55,841 nucleotides of DNA from a virus (taxonomy: Duplodnaviria; Caudoviricetes): positions 1-55,841 of IMG/VR virus record IMGVR_UViG_3300037339_000150. The stretch is one strand, 5' to 3'. Of this stretch, positions 7,898 to 37,487 are shown piece after piece (the stretch's first letter is position 1; the number at the start of each line of letters is the position of its first letter). The notes beneath the pieces were generated by a model, which searched no databases, was not told the origin of the DNA, and saw nothing but the letters and a program-made list of their open reading frames with translations. The translations under genes were made by a program, and so were the position numbers.

Positions 7898-9985
7898 CTA
7901 GAATAGCGGAAGGTGAACAACAGGCTCTCCATCCTTTTCGGCGAGTTCAACGGTCACGTCGTAAGACTTCTTTGCCTTGAACAACTTAGCCGCTTCCAGT
8001 TGGGCGGCGTACTTCGTGTCGGCATAGACCTCAATCTGCTTGCCCTTGTAGAATGCGATGTATCCGTTCTTCTTTGGGGCTGGCGTATCCGCTGGTTCCG
8101 CAGAATGGAAGTCCTCGCGCGGGAGTTCCCCCGGCATGAAGTTCTTGGCGTAGTTCTGCCCGGCGATGCGGGCCAGAACGTCGGCGTCCCCTTCCGAGAA
8201 GCCGCCCTTCAAGGCCATGTCCCTCACCTTGCCTTCGACCTCCTCGAACGGAGGACGCCCTTCGGTCGGGTAGGTTGACCCGTATTCGGCGACCGTGGCG
8301 ACAGTGTTGTTCCAATTGCGCAATCTATCGTTGTCGGTCTCGCCAGCAGGCAAAACGAGTTCGGATTCTGGCGCGGCGTCGAGGCTCTTCGAGTATTCAA
8401 GGTTCTCTTTCGATGCGTCTTCGGCCTCGGAGTGCGGTCGGAGGTCATAGGTGTCGGAGAGAATCTCGTTGAACGTCTTGGGTTCCCAGTAGAGGTCGCG
8501 CTCGACGGCTGGCATCCCCATCGGGCCTTCGACGCCTTCCATCTCGTCCAGCGAGAAGTAGCCAAACTCCTGCTCGGCCCCGTCCACTAGACCGAAGAAC
8601 GTGCGGCTCTCGGGATCGTACTCCGAGGCGTACCACGTCCAGTTGCTCATCGGCGAGAAGAACTTGACGAGGGCCACGGCTTCCTTGCCCTTCGCCTCGT
8701 TGGCATACAGGGGTGGCAGTTGCTTCTCAAGCTCCTTCGTCAGAAGGAGATGGCCTCGCTTGCCGGTCTTCGCGCCTTCATGGAAATCGGCGGCTGGCTC
8801 GGCAGGCGACCAGTCATCAGGGCCTTCGACGGTCTCGCCCTCGGCGAGAGCTTCCGCCGGTTTCCGTCCCTTTTCCAAATTGGCGTAGTATTCCTCTTCG
8901 CCCATCACGTTGTCGCTCGGCGCGGTGCCCGGAGCGTAGGACGGCGTTGATCCCCCGATGACGCCCGGCCGCCCAGCGTGTCCGAAGTGGCCCGACCCCG
9001 GACCCCCACGCAGAATGGAAATGTCGTCAAGAGTCGAGCCGAACACAAAAGGGCGGTAGCGCACTTCACCCGGAGCCGACCGAGCCGCCAGCGATGCCGC
9101 CGCGCCTCTGGAAAGCTCCTTCATGTACCAGTCTCCGCCGCCCACCGGGCGCATCAGGGTCGAGCGAACGAGGATGGCACCATCCGGCGTGTCCACGAAG
9201 CGCCGGAACAGGTACTCCTCAGGGACACCCGGATTGGAAAAGCGTTCCCAGCCCTCTTCGAGGGCGAGGTCGGCGGCTTCCTGATACCCGCGCTCGTAGG
9301 CGCGCACGTTCAGCATGGCCTTGACGGTTCGCAGGGACGCGGGCAGAGAGCGCCAAACGCCGGACGATACCTGAGCCGGGCGCATGGCCGGGCTATCGCC
9401 CTTGCCAGCCGCCAGCATCTCGGCGTCATGCTTGGCTTCAATATCGCGCTCCAACCGACGGACCGCGATGATGTGCGGATCATAGTGTGTCATGGGCTTC
9501 TTCCCTCGCTCAATCCGAGAACCGCTCAACCCGATGTCGTCTGCTTCGATGGTCTGCTTCATCGGTTCTCCGAGCTTCATGGTCTGGGTGGCCTCTTCGA
9601 CGGCCCACATTGCCTTCTCGCGTGCGCACCCCTCAGGATCAGGAGCAGTGGAGCACACGCCTTGGAGGGCGGCGTGGAAGGCCTCTTGATAAACCTGCCC
9701 CATCTCAACGCCGAGGTTCCCTTGAAGCGGAGTGGGGACTTCGGCAATCACGCCCGTCATGTCTGCCCCGGTCGCGATCAGATCGCCTTCGGCCTTCTCA
9801 ACCCACTGGCCGTCCTTGCTCTTCTTGTAAACGTTCTTGACTGCGGACCATGCGATTGATGCGGCGCAGGCATCCCGGTCGGAGCGTTCCTTGCAGGTCC
9901 CGCTGTAGGCAGACTCGAAAGCCGAGCGCCAGATGTCAGCGGCGTGGCCGCTCAGTGTCGAGGGGGCAGTGGGCTTTCCGGGCAT
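7898..9985 (-). CDS. Tagged multidomain protein: ChaB (x2) + tag + DUF2958-like + small C-terminal domain
   Basis: ChaB pattern HAADIWRSAFESAY...IAWSAVKNVYKK..GQWVEK; DUF2958-like VKFFSP.SNWTWYASEYD...FFGLVDG.E.EFGYFSLDE...ERDLYW; tag at 8948..9010. Start 9985 (RBS) or 9997. Confidence 0.8.
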   Translation of the reverse strand: MPGKPTAPSTLSGHAADIWRSAFESAYSGTCKERSDRDACAASIAWSAVKNVYKKSKDGQWVEKAEGDLIATGADMTGVIAEVPTPLQGNLGVEMGQVYQEAFHAALQGVCSTAPDPEGCAREKAMWAVEEATQTMKLGEPMKQTIEADDIGLSGSRIERGKKPMTHYDPHIIAVRRLERDIEAKHDAEMLAAGKGDSPAMRPAQVSSGVWRSLPASLRTVKAMLNVRAYERGYQEAADLALEEGWERFSNPGVPEEYLFRRFVDTPDGAILVRSTLMRPVGGGDWYMKELSRGAAASLAARSAPGEVRYRPFVFGSTLDDISILRGGPGSGHFGHAGRPGVIGGSTPSYAPGTAPSDNVMGEEEYYANLEKGRKPAEALAEGETVEGPDDWSPAEPAADFHEGAKTGKRGHLLLTKELEKQLPPLYANEAKGKEAVALVKFFSPMSNWTWYASEYDPESRTFFGLVDGAEQEFGYFSLDEMEGVEGPMGMPAVERDLYWEPKTFNEILSDTYDLRPHSEAEDASKENLEYSKSLDAAPESELVLPAGETDNDRLRNWNNTVATVAEYGSTYPTEGRPPFEEVEGKVRDMALKGGFSEGDADVLARIAGQNYAKNFMPGELPREDFHSAEPADTPAPKKNGYIAFYKGKQIEVYADTKYAAQLEAAKLFKAKKSYDVTVELAEKDGEPVVHLPLF

Positions 9986-10027
9986 GGCAAACTCCACCTT
10001 CTGCGGGCTTTCTACTCCCTAGAATAA

Positions 10028-10059
10028 GCATTTGTCCTTCCGTTGGGAAGGACAAATGC
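10028..10059. promoter_or_regulatory. Perfect 14-bp inverted repeat (operator or RNA hairpin) upstream of the ChaB-protease-capsid genes
   Basis: GCATTTGTCCTTCC-GTTG-GGAAGGACAAATGC, with TTGACA on the minus strand at 10064..10069. Confidence 0.6.
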
Positions 10060-10095
10060 ACCATGTCAACTATTCCGTTTTCGGCGGATTTGGGG

Positions 10096-10374
10096 CTAGT
10101 AGACCATCTCCGGGTCTTCTTTGGGGAGCGTCCCTACCTGCTCAAACTCGGCTCCCAAGTCCGTTGCCGCCCTTTTCGCCACCGTTTCGGCCGGGCGAGG
10201 ATCGTACTGGAACCCGTAGTTTGGGATCAGCAGGGGAAGCATGGTTGGGAGATACAGGGCGTTCAGGTTGTCCCTCAGCACCTCGTCGTCCGACCGCCAG
10301 CCGGAACCCGGCACGAACTCGGCCGTCCTCCCCGAGGGAAAGGTGATGCGGTAGAAGAAGAGGTCGCTCATCAC
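10096..10374 (-). CDS. Small hypothetical protein; possible partner/immunity protein of the upstream peptidase domain
   Basis: Overlaps the upstream stop; resembles the N-terminal ~85 aa of 21594..23102. Confidence 0.7.
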   Translation of the reverse strand: MMSDLFFYRITFPSGRTAEFVPGSGWRSDDEVLRDNLNALYLPTMLPLLIPNYGFQYDPRPAETVAKRAATDLGAEFEQVGTLPKEDPEMVY

Positions 10375-12083
10375 TCACGCTCCAATCTGAGCCAGTCGCC
10401 CTTGAGGGCAGTAATGGCAAAGTTGAACAACTCGGGATCGGCGGCGGCGAGCATCGCCGGGTTCAGCGCCAATTGGCCTGCCGCCGTGCTCAGGACCTCG
10501 CTTTGGTATCGGGTGTCGGGGTACGTCCGTCCGGTATAGGGGTCCGCGAACCTGTCGGGTCTCTGGGGGACAAGGCCCGCGAGGAATTGCGTGCGATCCC
10601 CGCCTGCGCGATGCCTGTAGAACATCCACCCCAGCTTCCTGAGAGACATTCTGCGATTTTCAATGCCGTGTATCGACTCGTGGGCCATCGTCGAGTATGA
10701 CGGATTGCCCATCGCAATCAGGTCAATCTCAGAGTTGAACTGCCCGCCGTCGTTCAAGGGGCCGGTGGTCCTTCCGACAACTACGCCGTCCAAGTCCTCC
10801 AAGAGTTCCGGGGCGACAATCGTGGAGAGCACGTTCTTCGCCAATTCAAGGTGGGTTCTGGCGTCCGGCATCTGAGCTTCCGAGAAAGGCTCATAGTCTG
10901 GCGACGGGCTTTCCTTCTCGATCAACTTGAGAGGCACAGTCTCCGGCCGCGGTTCGTCGGAGAAGGCGTTGAAGAGGGGCTTCAGGTCTTCCCTCATCAC
11001 CCGGACGGCGACTCCCGCAACTTCGCTCTGGTGCTCCGTGAAAATCTTGCGATCCCCATTGAGCTTCTTTTCGATGGCGTCAAGGCGTGCCCTATCCGGG
11101 TCGCCGGATTCCAGTAGGGCCTCACGTTCGGCTATTCCCTCCGCCAGCCGCGCGGCGTATGTCTTCTGGTCTTCTTGCAGGGCATAGGGGAGTTGGGAAT
11201 CGTGGCTGGCAACCGTCTTGCGCACGCTCTCCGCCTTGCGCATGTCGCTCATCACGGTGTCCCATCGGTCCCAGTCTTGCTCCGTAAGGCCAAAGTCCAG
11301 CGCCCGCTCGTCGGCGGCGAACTTGACGGCCACCGCCTCTTTCTGGGAGTGGTAAACACCGCGCATGACTTGGGCGACGGCCGAACGCATCGGCTCGTCC
11401 ACTGCCTGCATGAAGGCCGAATCGTAGTCGATGGAGCCGTCTATCTTTACTGTTCTTCCCAGTGAGTACCAAGTCGCGGGGTCCGGGGCCTCCCTGTCCA
11501 GCGCCAGCATGAGAGTCCCGAGCACGATGTTCGTGCGGTTCTCTCCGATGAACGGGTCTTCGTCCTCGATGCTGTCAAGGAAGTGGGATGCCCGTTGCCC
11601 GGCCCGCGTGTGGATTTCGGCGCTGGGTTCCGTGCTGTCGCCCATCTTCTGAACCGCGGCGACAAGCGCCGGGAGCACTGTTTCGATGGGAGGCAAGGGA
11701 GACTGGCCGGGCGGTTGGATTCTTTGGTAATCGGCGTAGAAGTCACGGGCGATGTCCGAGCGCCAGAGTTCCTTCGCGTGGAGGTCGGAGAGCCACGACT
11801 CTTTCTTCTTGGCACCCTCAAGGGTTGGTCTCCAAGCGTCCAGAGCGTCGAGTGCCTCTTGATCCCAGCCTCGCATGAACGTCCGCTTCCCGTCCACCAT
11901 CGTAGTGCCGTCCCCCTGCTTGGCGGGCCTGCCCCACGCCTTCTTGCCGGGCAACGAATGGAAATCGGACGGTTGTGAGCCTCCGACCTCGCCGGGGCGT
12001 CCTTCGTGACCGAAGTGCCCGGAGCCAGCGCCGCCGCGCCTCACCAGCGACAGATACCCTTCGATGGTCAGCAGTTTGCTCAT
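10371..12083 (-). CDS. Tagged protein with C-terminal zincin-like metallopeptidase domain
   Basis: Tag at aa 16; HESIH...YTGRTY...EVLS...NPA...DPELFNF. Confidence 0.8.
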   Translation of the reverse strand: MSKLLTIEGYLSLVRRGGAGSGHFGHEGRPGEVGGSQPSDFHSLPGKKAWGRPAKQGDGTTMVDGKRTFMRGWDQEALDALDAWRPTLEGAKKKESWLSDLHAKELWRSDIARDFYADYQRIQPPGQSPLPPIETVLPALVAAVQKMGDSTEPSAEIHTRAGQRASHFLDSIEDEDPFIGENRTNIVLGTLMLALDREAPDPATWYSLGRTVKIDGSIDYDSAFMQAVDEPMRSAVAQVMRGVYHSQKEAVAVKFAADERALDFGLTEQDWDRWDTVMSDMRKAESVRKTVASHDSQLPYALQEDQKTYAARLAEGIAEREALLESGDPDRARLDAIEKKLNGDRKIFTEHQSEVAGVAVRVMREDLKPLFNAFSDEPRPETVPLKLIEKESPSPDYEPFSEAQMPDARTHLELAKNVLSTIVAPELLEDLDGVVVGRTTGPLNDGGQFNSEIDLIAMGNPSYSTMAHESIHGIENRRMSLRKLGWMFYRHRAGGDRTQFLAGLVPQRPDRFADPYTGRTYPDTRYQSEVLSTAAGQLALNPAMLAAADPELFNFAITALKGDWLRLERE

Positions 12084-12086
12084 GCT

Positions 12087-13025
12087 TCATTCCTCGCAGG
12101 GATCGGGGCCAGTATACCCCATCGACCGCGCCCAAGCCGTCACGCTCGCTTCCCAGCTTTCGCAGGGTTCCGGTTCGGGGACAACCGGCGGCGGCGGCGC
12201 GGCCAGCCACGGCTCCACGGACTTCCATGCCGTCCACCACTCCTTGACTTTCAGCCCGCTGTTGAAATGCCAGTTGGACTGGCCCGGCAGGCTCAGGGAG
12301 CGCACCCGATTGGAAAACGCGATGATGCCCGGCACATCACAGGTGCCGCCATCGCCGTTATAGAGACGCCCGGCGGGGACATAGGGCTTGGGCGTGAACT
12401 TCCGCCACTGCTCGTAGGACGCGTTCAGCCAGAACTCGGCCCAGTACGCCCCCTTGTTCGGCCAGTAGACCATCGGAGCGGCGAAGTCCAGAACGGCCAT
12501 CGCCCGCTTGGCAACATCCACTGGATGCCACGGCGTCCCCTTGTTCGAGGTGTAGGGTGAGAAGAAGCAGGGCCACGAGCACCAGCCGCCGGGCTTGTTG
12601 GTCCCGGCCTTGAACTCGGAGGCCACGACATGCGCTCGCTCGGCGGCGTTCGGTTGCTTGTCGAATGCCCCCTCGGCGTCAAACTCCCAGCCGTCCAGCT
12701 TCAGGCGCTCGACCTGCTTGGCGGCGAACTGACCCTCGCCCTTGGGGTTGTAGCCCCGGTTGAAGCCCCAGCCGTCGATGCGGATGGCCCACTGCACCTT
12801 CTCGCATTCCGCCCGAACCTGCGCCACCCACTCGGGCTTCACGTTCTCGCCCCACTTCGGGTAGTAGATCGGCGAGAGCATGTAGGGGCCAGCCTCCTGA
12901 GCCGCCTTCACTGCAATGCGCTCGATGCGAGAGTCCTTGAGGGCAAGCGCCAGCGCCGCCGGATCGCCGCGCAGGACATCGGGGACCACCCAGTAGAAGA
13001 TGCTCTTGCCGAAGATGAGCGCCAT
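12087..13025 (-). CDS. Putative glycoside hydrolase / cell-wall hydrolase (TIM-barrel, GH25-like)
   Basis: GKSIFYW...IAVKA...GWGF...FDAEG...APMVYW...PAG pattern; Pro-rich linker and short C-terminal tail; no tag. Confidence 0.6.
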   Translation of the reverse strand: MALIFGKSIFYWVVPDVLRGDPAALALALKDSRIERIAVKAAQEAGPYMLSPIYYPKWGENVKPEWVAQVRAECEKVQWAIRIDGWGFNRGYNPKGEGQFAAKQVERLKLDGWEFDAEGAFDKQPNAAERAHVVASEFKAGTNKPGGWCSWPCFFSPYTSNKGTPWHPVDVAKRAMAVLDFAAPMVYWPNKGAYWAEFWLNASYEQWRKFTPKPYVPAGRLYNGDGGTCDVPGIIAFSNRVRSLSLPGQSNWHFNSGLKVKEWWTAWKSVEPWLAAPPPPVVPEPEPCESWEASVTAWARSMGYTGPDPCEE

Positions 13026-13026
13026 G

Positions 13027-14223
13027 TCAACCTCCGCTGTTCTGCTTGATAAAGTTCAGGATGTAGGGCCGGGCATACTTCCACTCCCAGTTGCCGCGCT
13101 TCACTTCGTTGATGACGCCCACACCACCCTTCTCTCTGAACTCTGAGTAGAGCGAGAACTGGTGCATGGCGTAGTTGCCGCCGGGGAGCGGCTTGAGCAT
13201 GTAGACCCAGTTCTCGGAGGCGTCCTTCTTGACCTCGCTCACCGGGCGCATCCCCAAGTCCGCCACCATCTTCTCGGCGTTCGGCATCCCGTGGTCGAAC
13301 GGATCGGTCACAGAAGGCTCGGGCACAGCCATCTTCACCAACTTGTTGCCCTTCACGAAGTCGTAGCCGTGCTTGCCGACCGAGACCTCCAACTTGGCAG
13401 TCAGGGCGTTCTCCGGCGGCGACCACGATTGGAAAAAGGCTTGGACCTCGCCCTGCTCCCCCTCCACCTTCGCCTGCTTCCCCTCGAAGCTCTGGCGAGC
13501 GATTGCCAAGTCCTGCTCGATGAAGGCGTTGGGATCGGACTCGGCGCGAGCCAAGAACTCGGCTTCCTTCTTCTTCTCCTTGGTCCAGAACATCCCGGCC
13601 AATCCGCCGGGGTGCCCCTCGTGGCCGTAGACCTTGAACAAGCGGTCGCGGGTAGCGGCGTTCATCGCCCATTCTTCCTTGCGCTTGTCCCAGAGGTCCT
13701 TCAGGGACGGAGGCCAGTCTTCGGGGTTCGCGCCGTACTTCGCCAGTTCGTTCTTGTCCGGCGCAATGATGTCCAGCAACGTCGGATTGGTAATCGGCTG
13801 GCCGGGCTTCGGCAAGTAGAGTTGTGCCACCAGCGCCCATCGGGCGTCTTGCAGGCGGGTAAGAACGGCGGGCATTGGTCCCTGAGCAGGACCCTCCTTG
13901 GCCGGAACGAACGGCACCTTCTTCTCTCCGCCGCACTGGAAGCAGACGCCCTCTGCGACGTGCTGGTACTGGTCGAGGTACCCGGTTCCGCCGCATCGCG
14001 GGCAGTCAACAAGATCGCCGGGCTTGGGACCCTCGCCCTCGGCCGAATGGAAATCGCTCGGCTGGCTCCCCCCAACCTGCCCCGGCCGACCGGCGTGCCC
14101 GTGGTGCCCCGATCCCGGCCCGCCGCGCTCGACGATGGTCCGGCCCTCAATCATCGCCTGTGCGATGACGCTTTTCGGTATGACGACGATCTTGCCGTCG
14201 GCGTCAAGTATCGGAGAGGTCAT
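13027..14223 (-). CDS. Tagged protein with CxxCxGxG zinc finger
   Basis: Tag at aa 33; CPRCGGTG...GVCFQCGG. Confidence 0.78.
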   Translation of the reverse strand: MTSPILDADGKIVVIPKSVIAQAMIEGRTIVERGGPGSGHHGHAGRPGQVGGSQPSDFHSAEGEGPKPGDLVDCPRCGGTGYLDQYQHVAEGVCFQCGGEKKVPFVPAKEGPAQGPMPAVLTRLQDARWALVAQLYLPKPGQPITNPTLLDIIAPDKNELAKYGANPEDWPPSLKDLWDKRKEEWAMNAATRDRLFKVYGHEGHPGGLAGMFWTKEKKKEAEFLARAESDPNAFIEQDLAIARQSFEGKQAKVEGEQGEVQAFFQSWSPPENALTAKLEVSVGKHGYDFVKGNKLVKMAVPEPSVTDPFDHGMPNAEKMVADLGMRPVSEVKKDASENWVYMLKPLPGGNYAMHQFSLYSEFREKGGVGVINEVKRGNWEWKYARPYILNFIKQNSGG

Positions 14224-17200
14224 TCTTCACCTTCCAGATAGGACGGGGCTGGTCCGCCATTGAGAACGAAATTGATAATCTCCCTCTGGTGTGGCGTCGC
14301 CTTGGCTTCGTAGTCCGGGTGTCTCGACATCGCGTAGCACTCAGCTATGAGTTCTTGGCGGTTCGTCGTCGCATAGAACGAGATGTTGTCCGAGACGGGC
14401 TTCTCGTAGGCGTTTTTCGCCGGTATGTCGCCAGCGCCAGTTGAGAGCAACCGCTGGCTGGCCTTCCGCGCCGAGGGGAATACATCAAGGGCATCGAGAT
14501 GGTGCCCGTACTCATGTAGGATCACGCCGGTCTCTATCGGCGAATACATCGAAGTCGCCGACATCCTTTCTGTGAAATCCCAAGCAGGCGGCTTCCCCTT
14601 GTGCTCATCGTCCCACCATTTCTGTCCGCTGACCCCGAAGAGGTCCGGGTAATCGAAGGCCCAGAACCCCCTCATGTAGGACAGGTATTTCCCCGCCGCC
14701 CCATCGTTCAGTTCGGATTTTGCAAAGGCCCCTCGCGTTGGGTGCTTTGCGACGAAGGCATCCAGTTCTTCGTCGCTCGGCGAGGGCGTCAGTATCAAGG
14801 CCATTGGGCTTTCAGCGAAAGCGCCGTCTTGCAGAAGTCCCTCGTAAGCATCGAGGTACGCTCTCGCCTGACTCTCGACCATCAGACGACCACCGCTGGC
14901 ATCAAACGCTATAGTCATTGGGTGTCGGCCTTTGTCCGTCCTGATTTCCTTGGCAACCTGCTCTTCAAAATGTCCGCGCCAGTATTCTCTGGCCTCTGGC
15001 TCGAAATCCTCAAGCCGACTCTCCATCCTTCGTTTGGCGTTGCTGTCCCACAGCTTGTCGAGGTCGTCCTTCGACCACGCCACAGTTCCCCCAAGCCTTT
15101 CGATGCGCCGTCGAGTTTCCTGCATGTCGTCTGGGTACGATCTTCGTTTCTGCGCCGAATGGAAATCGTCGGGCAGGCTTCCCCCAACCTCGCCCGGACG
15201 GCCTTCGTGATCGAAGTGGCCGCTACCGGGGCCGCCGCGTAGGGTGAGGCGGCGAGTGAGGGTGAGCGAGCGTTCAACCGAATGGACATCGCCGGAGATG
15301 CGCCGCTCCTCGCCCAACCACTCATCGACCTTGGGCTTCAACTGCTCCTCGGCTTCCCCTCGGATGTAGCGGATCAGACCTTCTGGGCCGCTCCCCACAT
15401 CCTCAACGACCTTGTAGTATTCCTCCTCGCCCTTCGCAAGCAACTCCTCCTCGAAGTAGCGGGGCGTCGTTTCTCCTTGGTAGAGGTCTTGCATGGGAAC
15501 CACTCGGGCATTGGGGATGCCCTCGCCGCCCATCACCACAAACTCCGACTCGAACCAGCATGGAAATCCCGTGTGCGCTATGGCGACGACTTTGGAGAGC
15601 GGGACATCCGCCACCATCACGAACCCGTTGTGCAGAGGGACCTCGTAATCCATTTCTTCTTCCGTGAGTTCCCCGGTCTCTGCGTCGTGTTCGGGCGCAT
15701 CTTCGCCTTCGGGCACGGGAACGGCGAACTTCAGGGCGTCCTCTACTCCGCTGGCCCACGATGCTAGGGAGTAGGTCTTGACCGTCGTGGGTTCTTCTCT
15801 CATCGCCCCGCCGGGATTCCACTTGCCAAACGTGCTCTCCCCTTCGTGCTCGTCGCGCACTCCCCGATACAGGCGCATGGTGTCCTTGTCCGGGTCCAGC
15901 CCGATGCGCCGGAAGAAGTCCTGCGTCTGAGCGTACTGATACTCAAGGAACTTGCGCGCCGCTTCCCTACCGCCCGTTCGATCCATCTGATCGTAGTAGT
16001 CCGTGGCATCAACTCCCTTGAGGAACCGGGTTGTCTGCGAGTGCAGTTCTCCCAAGTCCTCGGAGTCGTATGTGTCCCGCCCCGGAGCCTCGCCGCCCCA
16101 CAACTCGGCCGCGACCTCTGCCGTGAGGATAGACGTGGGCACGGCATTCGTCCGTGTCCAGCCCACGTTGATTTCGTCGGCGATGGCTCGAAGTTCCTCG
16201 GGAGCATCCTCAGGAACCCACTGGTATCGGTCTGCCGCGTTCAGCGCATGGACGACATTGGAAACCGTGGCCGGTCCGCGGTTCTCCTCGAACCATGCAA
16301 CGGCCTTCTTGTTGCCGCCCACCAATTCCTTACCCAGATTGTCGATGAGCGTGTCGTGAATGTCCCTTGGAATCGAGGGCATACTGGTGGACCTAGAAAG
16401 CGCATCGTAGAGTTGCTCCGCGGTGTCGAACCGGCTGTCCATCCCGGAGTCCCTTTGACTCATCCAGCCCGTGACCAACTCGACCTGCCGGGAATCCAGC
16501 CCCCTGAACAGAGGCTTTGCGTCGGCAGGTGGCTTGTAGTTCGAGGCTTCTGCCAGACCCGGAACGTCCTTCGTGTCCTCGGCCAGAGCCTTCATCTTCT
16601 GATAGAAGGCCTCGGCCTTCGCCGCTTGCTTCTTCGATGAGAAGCCAGCGCCCTTGGTAATCCGCTCGTACTCGTACATCGACATCAGGGCCAAGTGCCT
16701 CGCCGAGGCCCTGCCGATTTCCTGTACCTGCTCATCGGTGGCATCATCGCCGAACGCCATCTGTGCTTGTTCCACAAGGCTGTATCCGTTGTTGGGAACA
16801 GCCAGCCGGAGGAACCAAGACGTGCTATCGCCTTCGGCCCCGAGCGCGGTCATCGCGGCGCGTCCCGCGAACTGGTCGAGCGCGGCGTCCGCCTCTATTT
16901 GCAGATCGTCAAGCATCTTGGCCGTGGTCTCGCTCGACGGGAACTTCGCCTCCCTCGCCTCCGTCTCCGTCTTCCCTGCGGCCATCAACTCGTCAAGGGT
17001 CAAATGGGCGGTGCCGGGCTTCTTCTTGCCTTGCGCTGAATGGAAATCGCCGGGCTGTGATCCGCCGCGGTGCTTGGGGATTCCCTTGTGACCGAAATGC
17101 CCCGATCCCGGCCCCCCGCGGAGAACCGCGCCAAGTTCGCCACCTGCGGCCCGCACGGACTTCCCGGTGGCGTCCAACTGGTCCTGCGTCTTTCCGTACT

Positions 17201-30532: not shown

Positions 30533-33500
30533 TCTTCAACCTTCGAGTGAACCGGGCGACGAAGCTCTTGGTGACGGGCTTGGTCTTCGTGAAGTAGTTG
30601 CGGCCAAACTCCTTGAAACCCTCGACGCCTTCCTCGCCCAACTGCGGCGTCCCGCCCGATCCGACCGCAATGTAGCCCTCCGGCCCGTGAATGAGATAGT
30701 CGCTCCCGGTCATCGTCGTTGAGGGAGTGTAAGCCCCGGTCGAGAAGATGCGGCGCTCCTTGCCTTCGTTGAGAATGCGGTAGGCATCGTCCACCGCCTG
30801 AGCCTTCGTCTGCTCGTTGTAGCGGGACGTGCTCCACTGCAAGACCTTGCCGAGGTTCGTCTTGGAGAGGGGCATACGGCTAGGAACTGGCATTTCTCTC
30901 CCCTCCCAGCGCAGGAGGCTCTCGCCAGCCGCTTTCGCTTCGTCCAGCGTCGGATAGACTTCCCGCCACTCCTTCTTCATGCGTTCGCTTCCGCCGCTCA
31001 CAAGAGCGACGCGCCACCCCTCGGGTTTTTTGGACGGGGAGATGCGCATGGTCCGGCCGAGGGGTTCGTCTCCGGGATCGGTTTTCAGAAGTCCCGTCCC
31101 CAAGAGACCGCCCTTCAAGTCGTCGCTCCAACCGGAAAACGATACCCTGCCGGGATCGACTGGCCCCGAATGGAAATCATCAGGCAAGTCCCACGGCTCC
31201 CGCGTGACGTGATAGGGCGTGTCGCTGAACTTCCAGCCCTTCTCCTCCAAAGAACGGCGCAATTCCGTTCCGTCCTCGGTCGAGTAGCCGAAGTAGAATG
31301 GCTCGCCCTCGAACTCGCCACGCAGGCGCTCCATCAGGGCCGTGGCAATTCCGCGACGCCGTGCATCTTCCCTCACTTCGACCATGTTGATCGAAATGAT
31401 GTCGTCGTATTCCGAGAAGTCGATGTAGCCGATGGTGCGACCTTCCGCATCGAAGGCCCTAATCGTTCCGTCGGTCTGCATGTCGTGGTAGCCCGTAACG
31501 TCAACCTCGATCTTGGCAACGCCGCTCGGCAGACTGCCGCCCTGCTTGCCGGGGCGTCCCTCGTGCCCATGATGCCCGGAACCCGGCCCGCCGCGTTCGA
31601 CGGCCTCAGCGATGCCCTGTCTGGGCTTGGTTTCCTTCGTCTTCTTGGGCGTCTTCTTCTTCGGTTCTTCCGCCGCTGGTTCTTCACCCTCGGTCTCGGC
31701 GTAATACTCGCCCACCTTCTTCCCTGCTTGGTTCGCCGGGAACAACGAGTTGATCCTGTCTTCGAGTTCGTCCCCGCGGAAGGCTTCCCGCATCTGCCCC
31801 AGCGTCAGGTCGTTGGGATCGCTGATATTGTTGGCGTTCATCGTCGCAAGCAGTTGCAGGTTGAACCGGGCCTTGTCGCGTCCCGTGAAGATTTCGTCCT
31901 CGGGATTGGAAATCGGGATCGGCTCGCCGGTGTAGGCGTTGGTGTAGTAGTTCTCGTAGCCGAGTTCCTTGGCCTTGGCGTGCGATGTCTGGATGTTGGC
32001 TTCTGCCTCCTTCCACGACTTCGCGGCCTCAGTCGCAAACGCCGTCAACTCTGGCATGTTCTTCTTGAGAATCTCCGTGGCCCGAGACGCGGCATCCTGC
32101 TCCGAGGCACCCTTGGAGACAAGGTTCTTGACCAGAGCGCCGTGGAGCACAGAGAACTGGGCCACCGCCTGCGACTGGTCTCTCGGAATCTCGAACTCGT
32201 ACTTCTCTGCTAGGCGCATCACCTCGTCCTGAAGCACCTTCGGAAGATCGCCCCACGCCGTATACCGAAGCATCTCTAGCTTTTCTGCGCGTGCGGTCTC
32301 GTCGTCGCCCTTGGCTGGCTCCACCCCGGCTGGGAACATGCCGGTCTTGGCTGGCGCTCCCTTGGGCGCTTCCCCGCCCTGAGCTTCGCCCTTGGCGCTG
32401 GCCGCTGGCTTCTCTGCCGCGGTGCCGCCTGCACCGGGAAGTGATCCGCCCTGATGCTCGGGAATGCCCTCGTGCCCGAAGTGACCGGACCCCGGACCGC
32501 CGCGCTCGATGATGGGGTCGTCAGTGAAGACGTTACCCTTCTTGAACTGAGCGGCAAGCCGGGACTTGGCGTAGAGCAGTGCTTCTCTGCGGCCATCCGG
32601 GGTGTTCGGCCACTTCTTCGTTGAACCCGTGACCGCAATGTAGTTGTCCACGGTATTGACGTGGACAGAATACGTCTTCTTTGGCCTGCCGACGATGCCG
32701 CTGTCGCCGGAATATCGTCCGGTCCCGACGGACGATCCGAAGCGCATGGTTGGATATGGCGGGACACTCACGAAATACTGCCCCTGCTGTCTCTCCAATT
32801 CTCCCTTGCCGTATGCCTCAACGAGCTTCGAGCGGGCGCGCTCGTATTCCGCTTCGCTCTCCGTGATGGAGAGCGGCGCTTCGAGCGACGCGTTGTAGTC
32901 ATTGAAAATCTTGTCGTCGGCGGATTTCTGAATGCGGTGCGCCGCTTCCGTTGCCTTGGTCAGCAGGTCCTCGTGCGTATCGCGCATCTCACGCCATACG
33001 TCGTAGTGGTCTGGCTTCAGCCCAAGACGTTTGGCAATCTCCTGCATCTTGGCTCCCGCCCGCAGGTAGTCGATGTAGTCAATCTCGGCGGCGTCCGGGG
33101 CCTCGGCCCGCATTCTGGCGAGTGTCCAGCCCATATACTCGACGTTCTCGATGTCCGCCATGTCCGATGGCTGTGAGCCTCCCCGCTTGCCGGGCCGACC
33201 CTCGTGCCCGTGGTGGCCTGAACCCGGCCCACCCCGCTCGGTGAGCGCCCTTCCGCCTCCGCCGCCGGTGGCATGGGCGGTTATGCTGAGACCAGCCCCA
33301 TGATTCTGCCCGCCGCACGAGCACTCGCAGTTCGCCCCCTTGGCATAGTAGCATCGGGCATCACAGGGGATCGTGTCCTTGTAGACACCCTTGAGCCTCC
33401 CGATTTCCTTGAGAGGGTTCCCGGTCTTCGGGTTGACCATGCGCGGCGGGTTGCCTGTGTTGTCGCCAGCGCCCCACACCCGGACATACTTGTTGGGTCC

Positions 33501-33911
33501 GGCATCGGGCTTCGGCATCAGGAAGCCCTGCCATTTCGCGGTCTTGCCCTCCGACCATCGCTTGTCGGTGATGTCCGGTATCTCGCCGCGGCGCGCTTCG
33601 GCGTAATACACCTCCGGCCACTCCATCGTCAGGCGCTCGCCGGTCACGGTATCCTTGTAGAACCATCGGCGGCTGATGGCAAAGAACTGCGAGTTGCCCC
33701 ACCCAGTTTCGTGCATTTCCCCAATGGGATACGGCTTGTTCGGCTCCATGATGGCTGGCAGTTCCACGACTTTCTGCCCCGCCTGCTCACGGACATACGG
33801 CTGGACAACAGGCGCGGTTGTAGAAGGCTCCGGCGGCTCCTCGGCCCGCTTGACCACCGTCACCACCCTTGGAAATCGTCCAGCCGTCAGGGTCGGTTTG
33901 TGGTTAGCCAT
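30525..33911 (-). CDS. Triply tagged polyprotein: Cys/His metal-binding domain and GNAT acetyltransferase
   Basis: CDARC..AKG.NCECSCGGQNHG; after the third tag GYIDF...INMVEV...RRRGIATALM (GNAT motif A). Confidence 0.8.
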   Translation of the reverse strand: MANHKPTLTAGRFPRVVTVVKRAEEPPEPSTTAPVVQPYVREQAGQKVVELPAIMEPNKPYPIGEMHETGWGNSQFFAISRRWFYKDTVTGERLTMEWPEVYYAEARRGEIPDITDKRWSEGKTAKWQGFLMPKPDAGPNKYVRVWGAGDNTGNPPRMVNPKTGNPLKEIGRLKGVYKDTIPCDARCYYAKGANCECSCGGQNHGAGLSITAHATGGGGGRALTERGGPGSGHHGHEGRPGKRGGSQPSDMADIENVEYMGWTLARMRAEAPDAAEIDYIDYLRAGAKMQEIAKRLGLKPDHYDVWREMRDTHEDLLTKATEAAHRIQKSADDKIFNDYNASLEAPLSITESEAEYERARSKLVEAYGKGELERQQGQYFVSVPPYPTMRFGSSVGTGRYSGDSGIVGRPKKTYSVHVNTVDNYIAVTGSTKKWPNTPDGRREALLYAKSRLAAQFKKGNVFTDDPIIERGGPGSGHFGHEGIPEHQGGSLPGAGGTAAEKPAASAKGEAQGGEAPKGAPAKTGMFPAGVEPAKGDDETARAEKLEMLRYTAWGDLPKVLQDEVMRLAEKYEFEIPRDQSQAVAQFSVLHGALVKNLVSKGASEQDAASRATEILKKNMPELTAFATEAAKSWKEAEANIQTSHAKAKELGYENYYTNAYTGEPIPISNPEDEIFTGRDKARFNLQLLATMNANNISDPNDLTLGQMREAFRGDELEDRINSLFPANQAGKKVGEYYAETEGEEPAAEEPKKKTPKKTKETKPRQGIAEAVERGGPGSGHHGHEGRPGKQGGSLPSGVAKIEVDVTGYHDMQTDGTIRAFDAEGRTIGYIDFSEYDDIISINMVEVREDARRRGIATALMERLRGEFEGEPFYFGYSTEDGTELRRSLEEKGWKFSDTPYHVTREPWDLPDDFHSGPVDPGRVSFSGWSDDLKGGLLGTGLLKTDPGDEPLGRTMRISPSKKPEGWRVALVSGGSERMKKEWREVYPTLDEAKAAGESLLRWEGREMPVPSRMPLSKTNLGKVLQWSTSRYNEQTKAQAVDDAYRILNEGKERRIFSTGAYTPSTTMTGSDYLIHGPEGYIAVGSGGTPQLGEEGVEGFKEFGRNYFTKTKPVTKSFVARFTRRLKND

Positions 33912-36069
33912 TTCGCAACCTCGCTCTCTGCACCGGGTACAGGTACGCCTTCATCGGGTCTCTGCTCGCCATCAGCAGGTAGGAAAGCCACCGGCGGGAC
34001 GCCGGACCAGTCTCCCAGTTGCAGAAGATCATGGACACGGGAACATCCATCGCCAGAATGGAGCCGCGCCCAACTTGCTCTGTCGCATACTCGGCCGCAA
34101 CCCCCGGAGAGAAGGTCCACGGCGACAGATTGGAAATCTCAACGTTCACCCACCCGCCATCCATCTCGGCAGGCAGGAGCATGTCTGGCGTCTCGATCAG
34201 GCCTCGGTACAGGCGGAGGGTTGAGTCCCTCTCGAACCCCTGCGCCTTCAGGATGTCCTGCGTGTCGTAGTAGAGCACGCGCACAATATCCGGGAGCATC
34301 GTGACCATCCCCCCGGTTTCCAGCCCTGCGTCCTCCATGTAGAACTCGCCCAGCAACCGGCGCTTCCCGTTGTCGTCGAGCGCCGTCCAATCGGTCAAGG
34401 CCATCTGCCCGATGACGCCGGAGATGGTCTTGCCCTTCGCCAGCACCTCGATGGTCTCGTCCGGGTCGCCCTGCACCATCGCCCACCGGGGGATCGGTTC
34501 CCCGCCGAACACGGCCGTCACCGCCTCGGATAGCGCCACCATCTCAGGCCCGAGCGTGGCCCGTTCGAGCGCCGACCCCATGCCATCCAAGAACTCGATG
34601 CGCTCCCGCATGATGGGCGTCGGAATACGGTTGATGACCCCGGCGCGCTCCCCGGCGTCCCGCATGTCCCAACCTTCAGGCATGTGGTAGGCCCGAAGGT
34701 TGTAGCCCAGCCAGCGCAGGAGGCGCTCCCTGTCCCCGTCAAGCGGATTGGAAATCTCAGGCTTCCAGTCAGTCGGGGTCTCGACATCGGTCACAACGAA
34801 CTGCTCGGGCAGGTCGATGGACAGGTAGGCGTGCGCCCGATCCACCATGTCGTCCGGCAAGTCCTTGCCAGTGCGCCAGTCGCTCGTCTTCTTCCGCTCG
34901 CGCTTGGGCGGGCGGTCGGCCCCTGAACGGGAAATGAGTTTCTGTGGAAACAACTTGCTCAAGCCAAGTCCCTCGACGGGAGGGCCTGCGAATGGGTCGT
35001 CGCCTCTCGGGACAGGCGGATCGCCGCCGAAGGACGGGGTGTAAGCAATATCCAGTAGCATGTCGAAGCTCGGGTACAGAGCGACCACGGATTCGAGGGC
35101 GTCGGCCTGAGAGCGCGTTGCTCTCCTTCTGCCAATGACATCGCCTACGGCAGATGTCGTCAGGTTCACCCGCAGATACCCAGCCTCGTACATCATGCCA
35201 ACGCAGGCGGTTTCGTCTAGGTTATATACCTGAACCTTCGCGTTGCCGTTGTCGTCGAATTGCTCTCTGAGTTCCTTGGTCGGAATGGCCTTGAGTAGCG
35301 AAGGCTCGTTGCCGATTGCGTTCCGCATGGTCGTCTTCGCCGACCGCTCGTGGTCCAGCCCGTACCCCCCGATCCACTTTCCGTTCGGCATGAGCCACCA
35401 ACTCGAATCCTGTGTCTTCGCCGTTTGCTTGTGTACCACCTCTGCGGAATCGGTCTCGGTGTACCCCGGATAGAAGTCCGCTAGATAAGCCTTCAGGCCG
35501 TTGTAGATGGCATCGAGTTGGGGGGCCGAGTAGTCAATCGCCCTCAATCCTTCGATGGACGTTCCCGGTCTTCCTGCAACCGCCTGACTGGCCTCGGACG
35601 AATGGAAATCGCCCGGCTGGTCGATGTAGGCTTGCAGGTAGGCCGGAAGGGTGCCGTCCTGAATCATGTTCGCCAGTTTCTCGTTGACGTTCTTGCCGCG
35701 GTAGGCGCTCACCACGCCATCGTCGAAGAGGGTCGCCTTGACCTCAGGCGGAATGCGGGCCTCAAGGAAGTGGGCGCGCTCGTGGGCAAGGATGTCCTCT
35801 TGGTCCGCCTTCGAGTGCCCGAAGAACTTGTCGGGGTCCACCGAAATCGTGCCGTCGGGGTTTGCCATTGCGATAATCTCGCCCCGCAACTTCTCGACGC
35901 GCACGTTGTCCGGCAGACTCCCCCCAACCTCCCCCGGCCGTCCTGCGTGATCGAAGTGGCCTGATCCGGGACCGCCGCGCTCGACCTTGGCGGAATCGCC
36001 ATGCGCGCCTCTCAGTCCCATGAAGAGGCCCTCGTAGGAATCGTCAATCACAAACCCTTGGCTCGTCAT
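33904..36069 (-). CDS. Tagged polyprotein: HExxH domain, unknown domain, degenerate ART-like domain
   Basis: HERAH; WWLMPNG..DHE..GYLRV; LYRGL...LSPWTFS...MDVP, lacking the terminal ExE. Confidence 0.78.
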   Translation of the reverse strand: MTSQGFVIDDSYEGLFMGLRGAHGDSAKVERGGPGSGHFDHAGRPGEVGGSLPDNVRVEKLRGEIIAMANPDGTISVDPDKFFGHSKADQEDILAHERAHFLEARIPPEVKATLFDDGVVSAYRGKNVNEKLANMIQDGTLPAYLQAYIDQPGDFHSSEASQAVAGRPGTSIEGLRAIDYSAPQLDAIYNGLKAYLADFYPGYTETDSAEVVHKQTAKTQDSSWWLMPNGKWIGGYGLDHERSAKTTMRNAIGNEPSLLKAIPTKELREQFDDNGNAKVQVYNLDETACVGMMYEAGYLRVNLTTSAVGDVIGRRRATRSQADALESVVALYPSFDMLLDIAYTPSFGGDPPVPRGDDPFAGPPVEGLGLSKLFPQKLISRSGADRPPKRERKKTSDWRTGKDLPDDMVDRAHAYLSIDLPEQFVVTDVETPTDWKPEISNPLDGDRERLLRWLGYNLRAYHMPEGWDMRDAGERAGVINRIPTPIMRERIEFLDGMGSALERATLGPEMVALSEAVTAVFGGEPIPRWAMVQGDPDETIEVLAKGKTISGVIGQMALTDWTALDDNGKRRLLGEFYMEDAGLETGGMVTMLPDIVRVLYYDTQDILKAQGFERDSTLRLYRGLIETPDMLLPAEMDGGWVNVEISNLSPWTFSPGVAAEYATEQVGRGSILAMDVPVSMIFCNWETGPASRRWLSYLLMASRDPMKAYLYPVQRARLRNG

Positions 36070-37487
36070 TCCGGCCTCTGCTCATAGCGATAGGTGAAAA
36101 CACCGGGGAATGCGTCGGCGACCTTCCTCCACGCCGCATCTAGGTTTTTGTAGAGAGAAACCTGTGCGACGAGGCGCTCCGATTCCGACAAGGCGGCAAA
36201 CTGGTCCGGCGTCGGCACTCTTTCGCACCCCATCTCAAGGAAACGCTCGGCGGTCTGGTTCTCGGAGTCCGAGAACGAGCGATTCATGGTAAAGCGGTAG
36301 GTCCCTCTATCTGTGGTGACAATCCCAGTGACCGGAAAACCTAGCGACGCGCCCTGTCCAATCTTTCGCTCTCCGTAAACATTGTGCATGTATTGAACGG
36401 AAGCAATGTCGGTTGGCGAAGGAGGCGACTCCATCGTTGACGGGTCATCGTCGTTTGGCGGATGGTTGTGTATGACCACGATTTCTTGGTCCCTCTTCCC
36501 TTGCTTGACTATCGAGGCGAACACATCGTCCGGGATGACGATTCGCTTGTTATCCCCAACGAGGTAGCGCCGACCGTCGTCCCGAAGGGCAAGAAGGCCG
36601 GTCTTGGTGATAGCAGAGAACGCTTCGTTTCTGTCTGTGGCTCGCTCTCTGCCCCATTCCTCAATGAAGATGTCCCTATCGGTGATGACTTCGTATGGCC
36701 TATCTGGATTGTCGGGATTCGGACCGCCAACGACCTCTGCGAACTGCCCGTTGAGTCGCATCTCCTTGGCCTTGGCGTAAGCGCCGTCTCGCGCCTCTCC
36801 CCACCAGACGCGACCCTTGGCTTTGTCTTCGGCCCCGTGGAAATCCCCCGGCTGGCTCCCGCCGACCTCGCCCGGCCGTCCGGCATGATCGAAGTGCCCT
36901 GATCCGGGACCGCCTCTAGCTACCAGCCGCCGGGTCACGCCCGAGACCTCTACGAACAGCCGGTCGCCAGCCTCTTTCGGAAGCCGGGTGGCGTCCACCT
37001 GCCGGTAGTCCCCATTCCACACCACAACATCCTCGAACCACAGGGGATCGGTAGGGAACCCGTCCAGCCCGTCCAGTGATCCACGGGGGTACAAGCCGAG
37101 GGTGATATGCGGGCGGTAGATGCCGGGCGGGGCATAGGACGAGACTTCGAGGCCCAGCGCCAGCGCCCGATTGAAAATGTCGGTCTGGATACGGGGGAGC
37201 GCCGGACACGGGTCCAGCACGAGTACGAGGTAGTCGCCCCACGCCTCGACGCGCACGCCCTCCGTAGAGAACGCCAGCGGCAGGCTCATCCCTCGCAGGA
37301 TCGCCTGAGCCGTCGCGTCGTCAGGAATGTCCGAGGTCAGGAGCGTGCAGTGCAGACGCTCTCTGGGATACCACTCGGCGCTGACGCCTTGGGCTTTGAG
37401 TGCGGACTGCACACGCGTAAGCACTCCGGGGTTTGCGACCCGGAGCGCGACGCACATGACATCCGCTTCGCGCAGGATGAGGTCCAT
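36066..37487 (-). CDS. 2H phosphoesterase (2'-5' RNA ligase/Acb1 fold) + tag + JAB/MPN-like domain
   Basis: LHCTL and PHITL 2H motifs; NE...IHNHP...SPTD JAB motif. Confidence 0.82.
   Translation of the reverse strand: MDLILREADVMCVALRVANPGVLTRVQSALKAQGVSAEWYPRERLHCTLLTSDIPDDATAQAILRGMSLPLAFSTEGVRVEAWGDYLVLVLDPCPALPRIQTDIFNRALALGLEVSSYAPPGIYRPHITLGLYPRGSLDGLDGFPTDPLWFEDVVVWNGDYRQVDATRLPKEAGDRLFVEVSGVTRRLVARGGPGSGHFDHAGRPGEVGGSQPGDFHGAEDKAKGRVWWGEARDGAYAKAKEMRLNGQFAEVVGGPNPDNPDRPYEVITDRDIFIEEWGRERATDRNEAFSAITKTGLLALRDDGRRYLVGDNKRIVIPDDVFASIVKQGKRDQEIVVIHNHPPNDDDPSTMESPPSPTDIASVQYMHNVYGERKIGQGASLGFPVTGIVTTDRGTYRFTMNRSFSDSENQTAERFLEMGCERVPTPDQFAALSESERLVAQVSLYKNLDAAWRKVADAFPGVFTYRYEQRPE

Follow-up and report, generated by a model that had tools for sequence, protein, structure and literature searches.

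What keeps a Gly/His-rich peptide motif nearly invariant along a whole series of genes in the head module of a phage? The question is raised by the linear IMG/VR virus sequence IMGVR_UViG_3300037339_000150 (55,841 nt, estimated completeness ~50%; this whole stretch is referred to here as the window), in which the motif, hereafter the tag, recurs in an array of coupled genes lying between the portal gene and a putative prohead protease gene. A preliminary description of the window took the tag for a modular address label that loads effectors into the virion; the observation behind that description was confirmed by our analyses, and the interpretation was partly supported. We favour the reading that the tag is a portable N-terminal load-and-release signal for head-internal effectors, comparable to the capsid-targeting sequence (CTS) of phage T4, and we judge this reading to be evenly poised between right and wrong. 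It starts from what the sequences show: the motif, its selection at the protein level, its polarity, the place of the array among the head genes and the domains to which the tag is fused.

The motif R-GG-(P/A)-GSG-H-xx-H-x-G-(R/I)-P-x-x-x-GGS was found in exactly 20 copies, carried by 13 minus-strand open reading frames (ORFs) at positions 7898–37487, with one to three copies per ORF (regular-expression search of the ORFs and of all six frames), in agreement with the numbers first given for this locus; 1000 residue shuffles of the 14 array proteins yielded 0.01 copies on average and never more than one. A hidden Markov model (HMM) of the 20 copies (alignment A1) recovered only the same 20 places in the record, with E values of 7e-24 to 1.5e-17 (24 candidates scored). 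The R, GG, G-S-G-H, H, G, GGS and P positions are invariant across these copies, 11 of which are followed by a P-x-DFH-(S/E/G) tail. A logo of 781 distinct instances read (K/R/L)-GG-P-GSG-(N/H)-F-G-H-x-G-R-P-G-x-V-GGS-x-P, with a weaker hydrophobic strand at positions -7 to -5 and a Gly/Ser-rich tail after the core; the columns not fixed by the extraction pattern (G-3, G-2, S1, R9, P10 and G11) were 91–100% conserved. Of these instances, 65% have Pro after GG, 48% have Asn at position 3 and 52% have Glu after GRPG. Four of the window tags (24956–25018, 22776–22838, 17058–17120 and 32442–32504) have the coupled variant G-I-P-x-H-(R/Q)-GGS in place of G-R-P-G-x-V-GGS. In the wider set, the change of R9 to I was always accompanied by H12 (25/25 cases), often together with R13, and this constant pairing hints that the core may have a defined conformation.

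The tags are conserved as peptides and not as DNA. In the 20 copies, the invariant Gly residues use all four codons, the invariant Ser residues use both TCN and AGY, and the Arg before GG uses five codons; the mean pairwise nucleotide identity of the 63-nt core is 68.5%. Since the synonymous sites are scrambled, the tags are old and have been held by purifying selection on the peptide, rather than by gene conversion or DNA homology. The same scrambling rules out a recent DNA-level duplication of the tags, except for the two copies in the ninth array gene, which look recently duplicated (~90% nucleotide identity).

A separate nucleotide pattern was noted near the tags. The 9-mer GATTTCCAT occurs 19 times on the minus strand and not at all on the plus strand of the whole record, with 0.28 copies expected (for example at 3660–3668, 8780–8788, 11958–11966, 51732–51740 and 53047–53055), and no 8-mer of the window is more over-represented than GATTTCCA, which is contained in this 9-mer (36 copies versus 1 on the other strand, 0.59 expected). 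Fourteen of the 19 copies of GATTTCCAT read D-F-H in frame, 10 of these exactly three codons past a tag; the other five are in other frames and include sites outside the array. The GAT and CAT codons are fixed in GATTTCCAT although the genome has a G+C content of 62%, and this word may be a DNA or RNA signal overlaid on the peptide tail.

The tag is widespread. A profile of the 20 copies, searched against 1.84 billion representative proteins, gave 3556 matches at E<=1e-3, of which 728 reached 1e-10 and 101 reached 1e-30; the 150 best of these library proteins are 372–3154 residues long and contain 2–9 tags each. The motif was also found in 269 IMG/VR stretches. Locus comparisons were carried out with 71 IMG/VR loci, in which 322 tags were identified, all on one strand (the tag-bearing loci compared here are designated by L-numbers). 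A search of 185,579 species genomes with a strict degenerate DNA pattern identified 33 stretches, nearly all on contigs of metagenome-assembled genomes (MAGs); an automatic scan of genome contigs carried out before this search had confirmed none of 447 pattern matches. The match between the portals of cultured phages and the portal of L061 ends near residue 504, at the start of the tag region, and none of 718 records covered 80% of the query. No match to the window portal or to the tag-MuF ORF of L019 was obtained in 50,697 phage records. A tblastn search of these records with the tag gave no match even at E<=10, a result that does not imply absence, as the low-complexity filter probably masks the query. 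The motif seems to occur mostly in uncultivated phages. Tags were also noted on contigs L085, L089 and L093 of MAGs labelled Methanomicrobiales, Bathyarchaeia and Methanomassiliicoccales, respectively; L085 and L089 share the same tagged ORF of 313 residues, and these contigs may be archaeal viruses or may have been mis-binned.

In line with the preliminary description, which knew of no described function for such strings, the tag has no described family: no Pfam, NCBIfam or PHROGs model covered it, in scans of the proteins and of a 45-residue tag piece, and no PDB chain matched its profile at E<=10. Full-text literature searches with the motif strings returned nothing relevant. The words "glycine" and "linker" do not occur in the text of the paper on polyvalent proteins (PMC5512222), whose supplementary alignments fall outside that scope and may hold the motif; in the available text of two papers on phage and polymorphic toxins, "motif", "linker", "glycine" and "cleav" do not occur (PMC5576092) or "glycine-rich" occurs once, in an unrelated context (PMC3482391). 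The tag is not a collagen-like repeat, as the stretch from G2 to S16 comprises only five consecutive Gly-X-Y triplets, with the register broken on both sides and no long uninterrupted run. Nor is it an AT-hook, since the GRP word (R 92%, P 91%) lies between H-x-G and G-(E 52%)-V and has no cluster of basic residues beside it. Two further candidates were rejected: a Tat signal, suggested by the RR of some leaders, because RR is also found upstream of internal tags and no hydrophobic region follows; and a ubiquitin-like LRGG tail for a JAB peptidase, because leaders of 6–36 residues cannot be beta-grasp domains and Pro usually follows GG.

The tag has a clear polarity, in that it heads a module. 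The location near N-termini or at domain boundaries reported in the preliminary description was borne out: the first tags of seven of the 13 window ORFs follow leaders of 13–36 residues, the other tags lie between blocks of ~200–850 residues, and a last tag is always followed by 200 residues or more. Among the 150 best library proteins, fewer than 30 residues precede the first tag in 74, and fewer than 30 residues follow the last tag in none; the median remainder after the last tag is 251 residues and the median tag spacing 197 residues. In the 77 proteins with an early tag, the leaders are as short as 6 residues and always retain a few hydrophobic residues plus the one residue before GG. Relatives pack similar arrays into fewer and larger ORFs, of up to ~2800 residues, and gene boundaries shift relative to the tags. 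One homologous block begins 13–14 residues past the tag in either of two settings: it forms an ORF of its own, tagged at the N-terminus, in L017, L018 and L020, and it closes a polyprotein of 1943 residues in L007. A plain linker or an inter-domain cleavage site would not persist behind a leader of 6 residues, and we therefore conclude that the tag serves the block that follows it.

The position of the array is linked to head morphogenesis. The head-module genes of the window are all on the minus strand, in the reading order terminase, portal, a gene for a 187-residue protein, a gene for a 98-residue protein, 14 large ORFs (37487 to 7898), a gene for a 658-residue protein and the capsid gene copies. 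Ten related loci have the order terminase, portal, 187-residue gene, 98-residue gene, array, 658-residue gene and capsid gene, and their arrays range from ~4 kb with one tag (L060) to the ~30 kb and 20 tags of the window; homologues of the window portal (3e-224 to 9e-290) precede the arrays, and homologues of the capsid candidate come after the protease-like gene. A terminase homologue, searched for in untagged ORFs only, was found in the flank of 30 of the 71 loci, located 48–5375 nt upstream of the first tag in 28, downstream in one and within the array in one. An ORF similar to the 658-residue protein or to DUF2213 is present in 25 of the 71 loci and downstream of the last tag in 19 of these; in L057, a DUF2213 protein and a capsid protein come, in that order, after the array.

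In other phages the tag is fused to head proteins. Five of ten one-tag IMG/VR ORFs have head domains and five have no family. The former comprise Phage_portal_3-tag-LPD13 (L061), Portal_Mu-tag-Phage_Mu_F (L005), DUF2213-tag-remainder (L011 and L031) and tag-Phage_Mu_F (L019). In addition, a tagged ORF of 876 residues in L027 has portal and 2H domains and a tagged ORF in L047 has Portal_Mu, the tags lying ~120–140 residues from the C-terminus, after those domains. A portal domain precedes the tag in 8 of 10 tagged ORFs of genome contigs, one of the others having Phage_Mu_F and one nothing; toxin or nuclease modules could be recognised after the tag in four of the ten, namely Ntox50 (directly in L082, further on in L101), PBECR3 (L077) and DUF4258 (L078). 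Phage_Mu_F was found in tagged ORFs of L005, L019 and L090 and in no array ORF of the window. In five loci (L011, L031, L027, L029 and L030), a DUF2213-like domain immediately precedes the tag within a single ORF; this is the position at which, in other phages, fusions of protease and scaffold undergo self-cleavage. No address is required for a toxin that is part of a portal, since the portal ensures its incorporation, yet it needs release; chiefly for this reason, we read the tag as more than a label. The modular address label proposed in the preliminary description is upheld in its modularity, its selection at the protein level and its tie to head morphogenesis, but a label alone does not account for the portal-tag-toxin proteins.

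Two further features of such loci were noted. The contigs L082, L101, L079, L083 and L092, labelled Clostridia or Lachnospiraceae, encode portal, NUDIX and tag in a single ORF, with Ntox50 in two of them and Asp as the residue before GG, and these proteins look like portal-borne polymorphic toxins. Moreover, some tag-bearing phages have intein or homing-endonuclease domains (LAGLIDADG_3, Hom_end and Intein_splicing) within their genes for terminase, portal and MuF (L047:1–4262 and L090:1751–4600).

The gene directly downstream of the array (5919–7895, minus strand) encodes the untagged protein of 658 residues, in which a putative prohead protease domain (residues ~85–300) is followed by an acidic, helical, scaffold-like C-terminal half. 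The ESM Atlas clusters nearest to residues 85–300 are those of Peptidase_S78 (11% and 92% of the members), S78_2 (24%) and S77 (92%), with scores of 0.93–0.95. The protein has 113 homologues, all unnamed and some fused to ChaB or DUF2958, and S214, D219, H222, H224 and H258 are invariant in 33 sequences of the family. The prohead protease call of the preliminary description thus gains from the ESM Atlas features, the conserved Ser and His residues and the position of the gene, but not from any HMM match, and we consider it somewhat more probable than its negation. The family also retains an A-(I/V)-(V/T)-(V/I)-(R/K) word at the protease/scaffold junction, which resembles the strand plus Arg that precedes the tags. 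Residues ~17–66 form a Cys-rich stretch with a weak match to the iron-sulfur protein PioC/HiPIP (E value 0.0073).

The residue before GG (position -4) is K, R, L, D, N or A in different phages and is nearly uniform within a phage. It is identical in 85% of tag pairs within a protein versus 28% of pairs between proteins, the largest contrast among 11 columns. In loci with a protease-like gene of the 658-residue type, it is R in 38 of 38 tags, whereas the 100 tags of loci with a DUF2213-like gene have L (58), D (27), A (10), N (3), G (1) or F (1) and never K or R. The protease-like domains of the L and A loci are 47–57% identical to one another and 20–39% identical to those of the D and N loci; Peptidase_S78 was found in one of five records of K-class loci, too few to be informative. 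As the -4 residue is uniform per locus and tracks the type of protease-like gene, it points to a joint load-and-cleave junction, and it would suit a P1 position that the prohead protease recognises in order to cut before GG.

The favoured load-and-release reading can be set out as follows, with binding, the cleavage position, packaging and injection as the steps that we infer. The unit would have four parts: a short hydrophobic strand; one lineage-specific residue (Arg in the window); the near-invariant core GG-P-GSG-(H/N)-x-G-H-x-GRPG-x-V-GGS with a Gly/Ser/Pro-rich spacer; and an effector block of ~200 residues or more. During prohead assembly, the protease/scaffold core (the product of 5919–7895) would bind the unit and so bring free-standing and polyprotein modules into the shell. 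The activated protease would then cut directly before the invariant GG, splitting the polyproteins into single effectors and freeing those fused to portal, MuF or protease domains. About 24 blocks would then be loose inside the head and travel with the DNA into the next host; an ADP-ribosyltransferase, an acetyltransferase, a zeta-type kinase and zincin-like domains are among them, as are many blocks of unknown kind. We are less confident of the exact cut site and of the enzyme than of the mechanism as a whole.

The closest known parallel is the T4 CTS, a sequence of 10 residues that targets proteins to the head, is removed by the prohead protease and can carry foreign proteins in (PMC9026906). 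Like the tag as read here, the CTS (of IPI–III and Alt; protease gp21) is a short, portable N-terminal signal on unrelated cargo that includes an ADP-ribosyltransferase and varies between related phages, as far as the T4 system is described in that source. The window tag is likewise N-terminal to its cargo, but, unlike the CTS, it also occurs internally in polyproteins and in fusions to portal, MuF and protease domains. Furthermore, the CTS ends in (L/I)-x-E, a pattern absent from the 781 tags, in which position -4 is K, R, L, D, N or A; the 23-residue Gly/His/Arg core follows the presumed cut and would stay on the cargo; and the phage is not T4-like and its tag is known from sequence alone.

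The array genes also resemble the polyvalent proteins, described in the text of PMC5512222 as large multi-domain proteins encoded near portal and terminase genes, with ADP-ribosyltransferases, zincin-like peptidases, kinases, nucleases and LPD domains, and predicted to be packaged and processed. Tagged proteins match LPD1 (weakly), LPD13, PBECR3 and ParB_N; LPD13 and PBECR3 are above cut-offs in tagged proteins of other loci, and the window has LPD1 at 1.1e-4, below the cut-off (22.6 versus 27 bits). Several effector domains occur per ORF (Zeta_toxin plus an HExxH block, GNAT, ChaB plus DUF2958), with two to four blocks per ORF near the portal and terminase genes, so that the effector repertoire is of the polyvalent-protein kind, as the preliminary description maintained. 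A difference is that the window set is spread over 13 coupled ORFs. In the MuF and polymorphic toxins, according to the available text of PMC3482391 and PMC5576092, a head domain is joined to a variable C-terminal toxin (Ntox50, BECR-type RNases) through a conserved "pre-toxin" module, the proposed processing site. The tag occupies the place of this module in the portal and MuF fusions of other loci, but the MuF-like part of the window is on a portal with no toxin and the carrier is often a portal rather than a MuF protein. In phages phiKZ and SPN3US, many proteins that are internal to the head and later ejected are reported to carry propeptides cut by a single prohead protease (PMC5694885, PMC7411985, PMC10052503). 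Unlike the tag, these propeptides have no long conserved core and form no polyprotein arrays, and the lineages are unrelated. The sites of the giant-phage prohead proteases are tripeptide-like (A/S/G-x-E). More distant parallels are the encapsulin cargo-loading peptides, which are short and Gly-rich and direct diverse enzymes into an HK97-fold shell, but are C-terminal, bind the shell, are not cleaved and differ in sequence; and the core polyproteins of adenovirus and African swine fever virus, which are cut after GG of the Gly-Gly-X type by a packaged cysteine protease of an unrelated clan. Both are analogies only, and the presumed tag cut lies before GG, not after it.

Several results weigh against the load-and-release reading. 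The core is much longer and more conserved than a protease site requires and is common to phages with different portals, terminases and protease-like genes; such near-invariance would be surprising if divergent phage proteins had to recognise the signal, and we know of no prohead-protease site near the length of 23 residues. The putative autocleavage word of the 658-residue family lacks the tag core. The product of 5919–7895 had no match in Pfam, PHROGs, NCBIfam or PDB, the Pfam models of Peptidase_S78 and DUF2213 (PF04586 and PF09979) had no match in six frames of the window at E<=10, and hhalign of the 658-residue family (alignment A2) against three DUF2213 sequences aligned only 29 columns of the last strand (probability 1.4%). 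Among the 36 loci whose sequence extends 6 kb or more beyond the last tag, 19 show no ORF similar to the 658-residue protein or to DUF2213, and upstream of the array of L040 (14 tags) lie Laminin_G_3 proteins instead of a portal. Common descent confounds the association of the -4 residue with the protease type, as few independent clades are involved. Finally, a polyvalent protein of 2811 residues was detected by proteomics in phi24B virions (bioRxiv 10.64898/2026.04.10.717836), and the tag was looked for in this protein and found to be absent. As the phi24B virion protein is untagged, the tag would define a subclass rather than a general requirement for packaging. A broader version would make the tag a general, self-sufficient load-cut-inject address, shared by many uncultivated tailed phages whose portals and head proteases are unrelated; this version appears doubtful to us.

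The puzzling conservation of the core suggests that it may bind something universal or act alone. The core might work by itself or on a universal ligand, through self-cleavage (Ser/His), a metal site, self-association of the Gly-X-Y triplets or a minor-groove GRP hook tying the cargo to DNA. This would agree with the near-invariance across portal families (Phage_portal_3, Portal_Mu and the window type) and different terminases, with the tags on contigs of MAGs labelled archaeal, with the five triplets and the R9I–H12 coupling, and with the long-flank loci in which no shared protease-like family was found. However, the net charge of the core is ~+1, far under that of AT-hooks, and Glu frequently follows GRPG; a His-based metal site cannot be general because of the Asn at position 3 in nearly half of the instances; an autocatalytic fold of 21–23 residues would be very small, and five triplets are a low number for a stable triple helix; and the lineage-specific residue before GG implies a lineage-specific reader. 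We consider an explanation of this type improbable.

We attach a similarly low probability to the tags being cleavage sites for the zincin-like domains of the polyvalent proteins themselves, acting in cis or on their neighbours, in the head or after injection, with no role for a prohead protease. The HExxH motif is indeed strongly enriched: it occurs eight times, in 8 of the 14 array proteins (shuffled mean 0.44, maximum 4), and 92 times in the 150 best tag-bearing library proteins (9.4 in shuffles), typically in the zincin context T-L-A-HE-L-G-H, and it is nearly restricted to tagged ORFs in the loci compared. This enrichment is real and fits the polyvalent-protein theme, and processing of polyvalent proteins by such peptidases is predicted in the text of Iyer et al. 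2017 (PMC5512222). Nevertheless, HExxH is missing from 88 of the 150 library proteins, from all tagged ORFs of 42 of the 71 loci, including L040 (14 tags), L057 (12), L014 (11) and L071 (10), and from the minimal one-tag fusions of L061, L005, L011 and L031. Furthermore, Pfam scans detected no peptidase or MPTase model in the array proteins, and the -4 residue tracks the type of the head protease-like gene instead. With so many tagged proteins and loci lacking HExxH, the zincin domain is a frequent cargo or helper rather than an obligatory reader of the tag.

It is very unlikely that the tag is a mere flexible linker, serving as a convenient junction for the shuffling of domain cassettes by recombination. 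The tags do lie at the boundaries of highly variable blocks, and gene boundaries do move relative to them: for 16 of the 27 window blocks, the 71 loci contain no homologue at E<=1e-8, from which we conclude that the cargo is hypervariable. However, the low DNA identity and scrambled synonymous sites leave little homology for recombination, leaders of 6–36 residues at the very N-terminus offer nothing to link, C-terminal tags do not occur, and the near-invariant His, Arg, Pro and Ser side chains go beyond the needs of flexibility. Equally remote is the idea that the tagged proteins are late enzymes with a cytoplasmic tag, acting in the producing cell and not carried in the virion, for which the L040 array, not beside a portal, could be cited, but which sits badly with the fusions to portal, MuF and protease-like domains, with the fixed same-strand place between the portal and the protease/capsid genes, and with the presumably small use of late-made host-takeover enzymes unless they are carried to the next cell.

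The cargo that the load-and-release reading would assign to the tags was delineated gene by gene along the array, on the minus strand. The coupling of the genes noted in the preliminary description was evident, as 10 of the 13 junctions overlap, by 1–73 nt, and the others are gaps of 1, 3 and 373 nt. Array gene 1 (36066–37487, 473 residues) has a weak 2H block, a tag core at 36855–36917 and a weak RadC-JAB block. Gene 2 (33904–36069, 721 residues) has a leader of 30 residues, a tag core at 35917–35979, HExxH at residue 96 and a weak DRAT-like match (599–683). Gene 3 (30525–33911, 1128 residues) carries tag cores at 33174–33236, 32442–32504 and 31533–31595, with GNAT in the last block. In gene 4 (28385–30532, 715 residues), a leader of 17 residues is followed by tags at 30419–30481 and 29174–29236; the last block has HExxH at residue 562 and the weak LPD1 match, and residues 559–711 match phrog_4529 ("minor head protein and DNA pilot", 1.2e-5). 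Gene 5 (25050–28457, 1135 residues) has tags at 28200–28262, 26895–26957 and 26193–26255, a CxxC pair and HExxH at residue 916; gene 6 (23099–25057, 652 residues) has a leader of 13 residues, a tag of the GIPGH variant (24956–25018), HExxH at residue 529 and a match to phrog_33618 (1.5e-16); and gene 7 (21594–23102, 502 residues) has a tag of the GIPKH variant (22776–22838) and HExxH at residue 379.

Gene 8 (20833–21606, 257 residues), whose start is 19 codons later in the database gene call, encodes a leader, a tag (21436–21498) and an ADP-ribosyltransferase (ADPrib_exo_Tox 1.2e-19, phrog_3895 2.3e-14). Gene 9 (17414–20833, 1139 residues) has tags at 20699–20761 and 19985–20047, HExxH at residue 717 and a C-terminal Zeta_toxin kinase (9.6e-27), and gene 10 (14220–17417, 1065 residues) has tags at 17058–17120 (GIPKH variant) and 15177–15239, a weak DRAT-like match and HExxH at residue 968. 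Gene 11 (13027–14223, 398 residues) consists of a leader of 32 residues, a tag (14065–14127) and a CxxC...CxxC zinc-finger-like block. Gene 12 (12087–13025, 312 residues) is the sole large untagged member, and its homologue in L002 and L007 is untagged too. Gene 13 (10371–12083, 570 residues) has a leader of 15 residues, a tag at 11976–12038, HExxH at residue 468 and a match to phrog_33618 (8.4e-8). Gene 14 (7898–9997, 699 residues) combines ChaB (3.6e-11), a tag (8948–9010) and DUF2958 (5.6e-15) and directly precedes the protease-like gene. An untagged ORF of 92 residues (10096–10374), whose start overlaps the stop of gene 13, sits in the 373-nt gap, as does a terminator-like hairpin with a 14-bp stem (10028–10059, minus strand), a pattern match only, which closes the long array operon. 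The hairpin, followed by a TTGACA-like word, separates this operon from gene 14, the last tagged gene.

The solid Pfam matches of the array are thus ADPrib_exo_Tox, Zeta_toxin, DUF2958, ChaB and GNAT (1.9e-5). The domain list of the preliminary description held for the ADP-ribosyltransferase, zeta, GNAT and DUF2958 domains and had omitted ChaB; its zincins rest on HExxH, and its 2H (0.0025), zinc-finger (0.0035) and RadC-JAB (0.19) assignments fell under the curated cut-offs, as did LPD1 and the DRAT-like ADP-ribosyltransferase matches (0.075 and 0.12). Most array blocks have no recognised family, and the "~20 separate effectors" announced for the locus stand as a count of blocks.

The remaining genes of the head module, again on the minus strand, agree with this setting. 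The large terminase subunit is encoded at 40945–42639 (Pfam Terminase_6C 3.1e-10, Terminase_6N 1.8e-7). The untagged portal of 912 residues (38348–41086) matches the portal family phrog_2662 over residues 111–895 (2.9e-14), and its MuF-like C-terminal part (residues 662–889) matches the head morphogenesis family phrog_2468 (2.2e-14), so that the portal-MuF call made earlier was sustained, at ~2e-14 in both cases. The protein of 187 residues (37785–38348) has no family and is kept beside the portal in relatives. The 98-residue gene (37492–37788) directly precedes the array and has homologues in nine related loci (phmmer, 6e-29 to 5.5e-40); its hydrophobic product has three hydrophobic stretches and contains Cys in the word C-x-x-C-x-x-C-W. 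No other small protein encoded near the portal is as well conserved, and such a membrane-like protein is unexpected within a head module. Beyond the protease-like gene lie a first major capsid protein candidate of 390 residues (4667–5839; phrog_212 major head protein, 5e-4), a virion structural protein of 449 residues (3233–4582; phrog_1645, 8.2e-85) and a second capsid candidate of 399 residues (2015–3214), 90% identical to the first. The related loci carry a single capsid copy, and the pair in the window may reflect a genuine duplication or an error of assembly.

Phage proteins injected along with the DNA act before phage gene expression and are hard to recognise from sequence. The tag would provide a listing of candidate injected effectors in metagenomes from sequence only, and most of the blocks that it marks here belong to no known family. 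If the more general address reading is true, each block after a tag, and thus thousands of mostly unknown domains in the 3556 proteins, would be an injected effector, and the tag by itself might serve to infer the injected arsenal of a phage from its sequence. A load-and-release tag would also extend the T4 targeting principle to unrelated phages and to polyproteins, and would explain how toxins fused to portal or MuF proteins are released. The -4 residue constitutes a testable prediction of specificity for a poorly known family of prohead proteases, and the tag itself is a candidate portable signal for the loading of foreign proteins into capsids.

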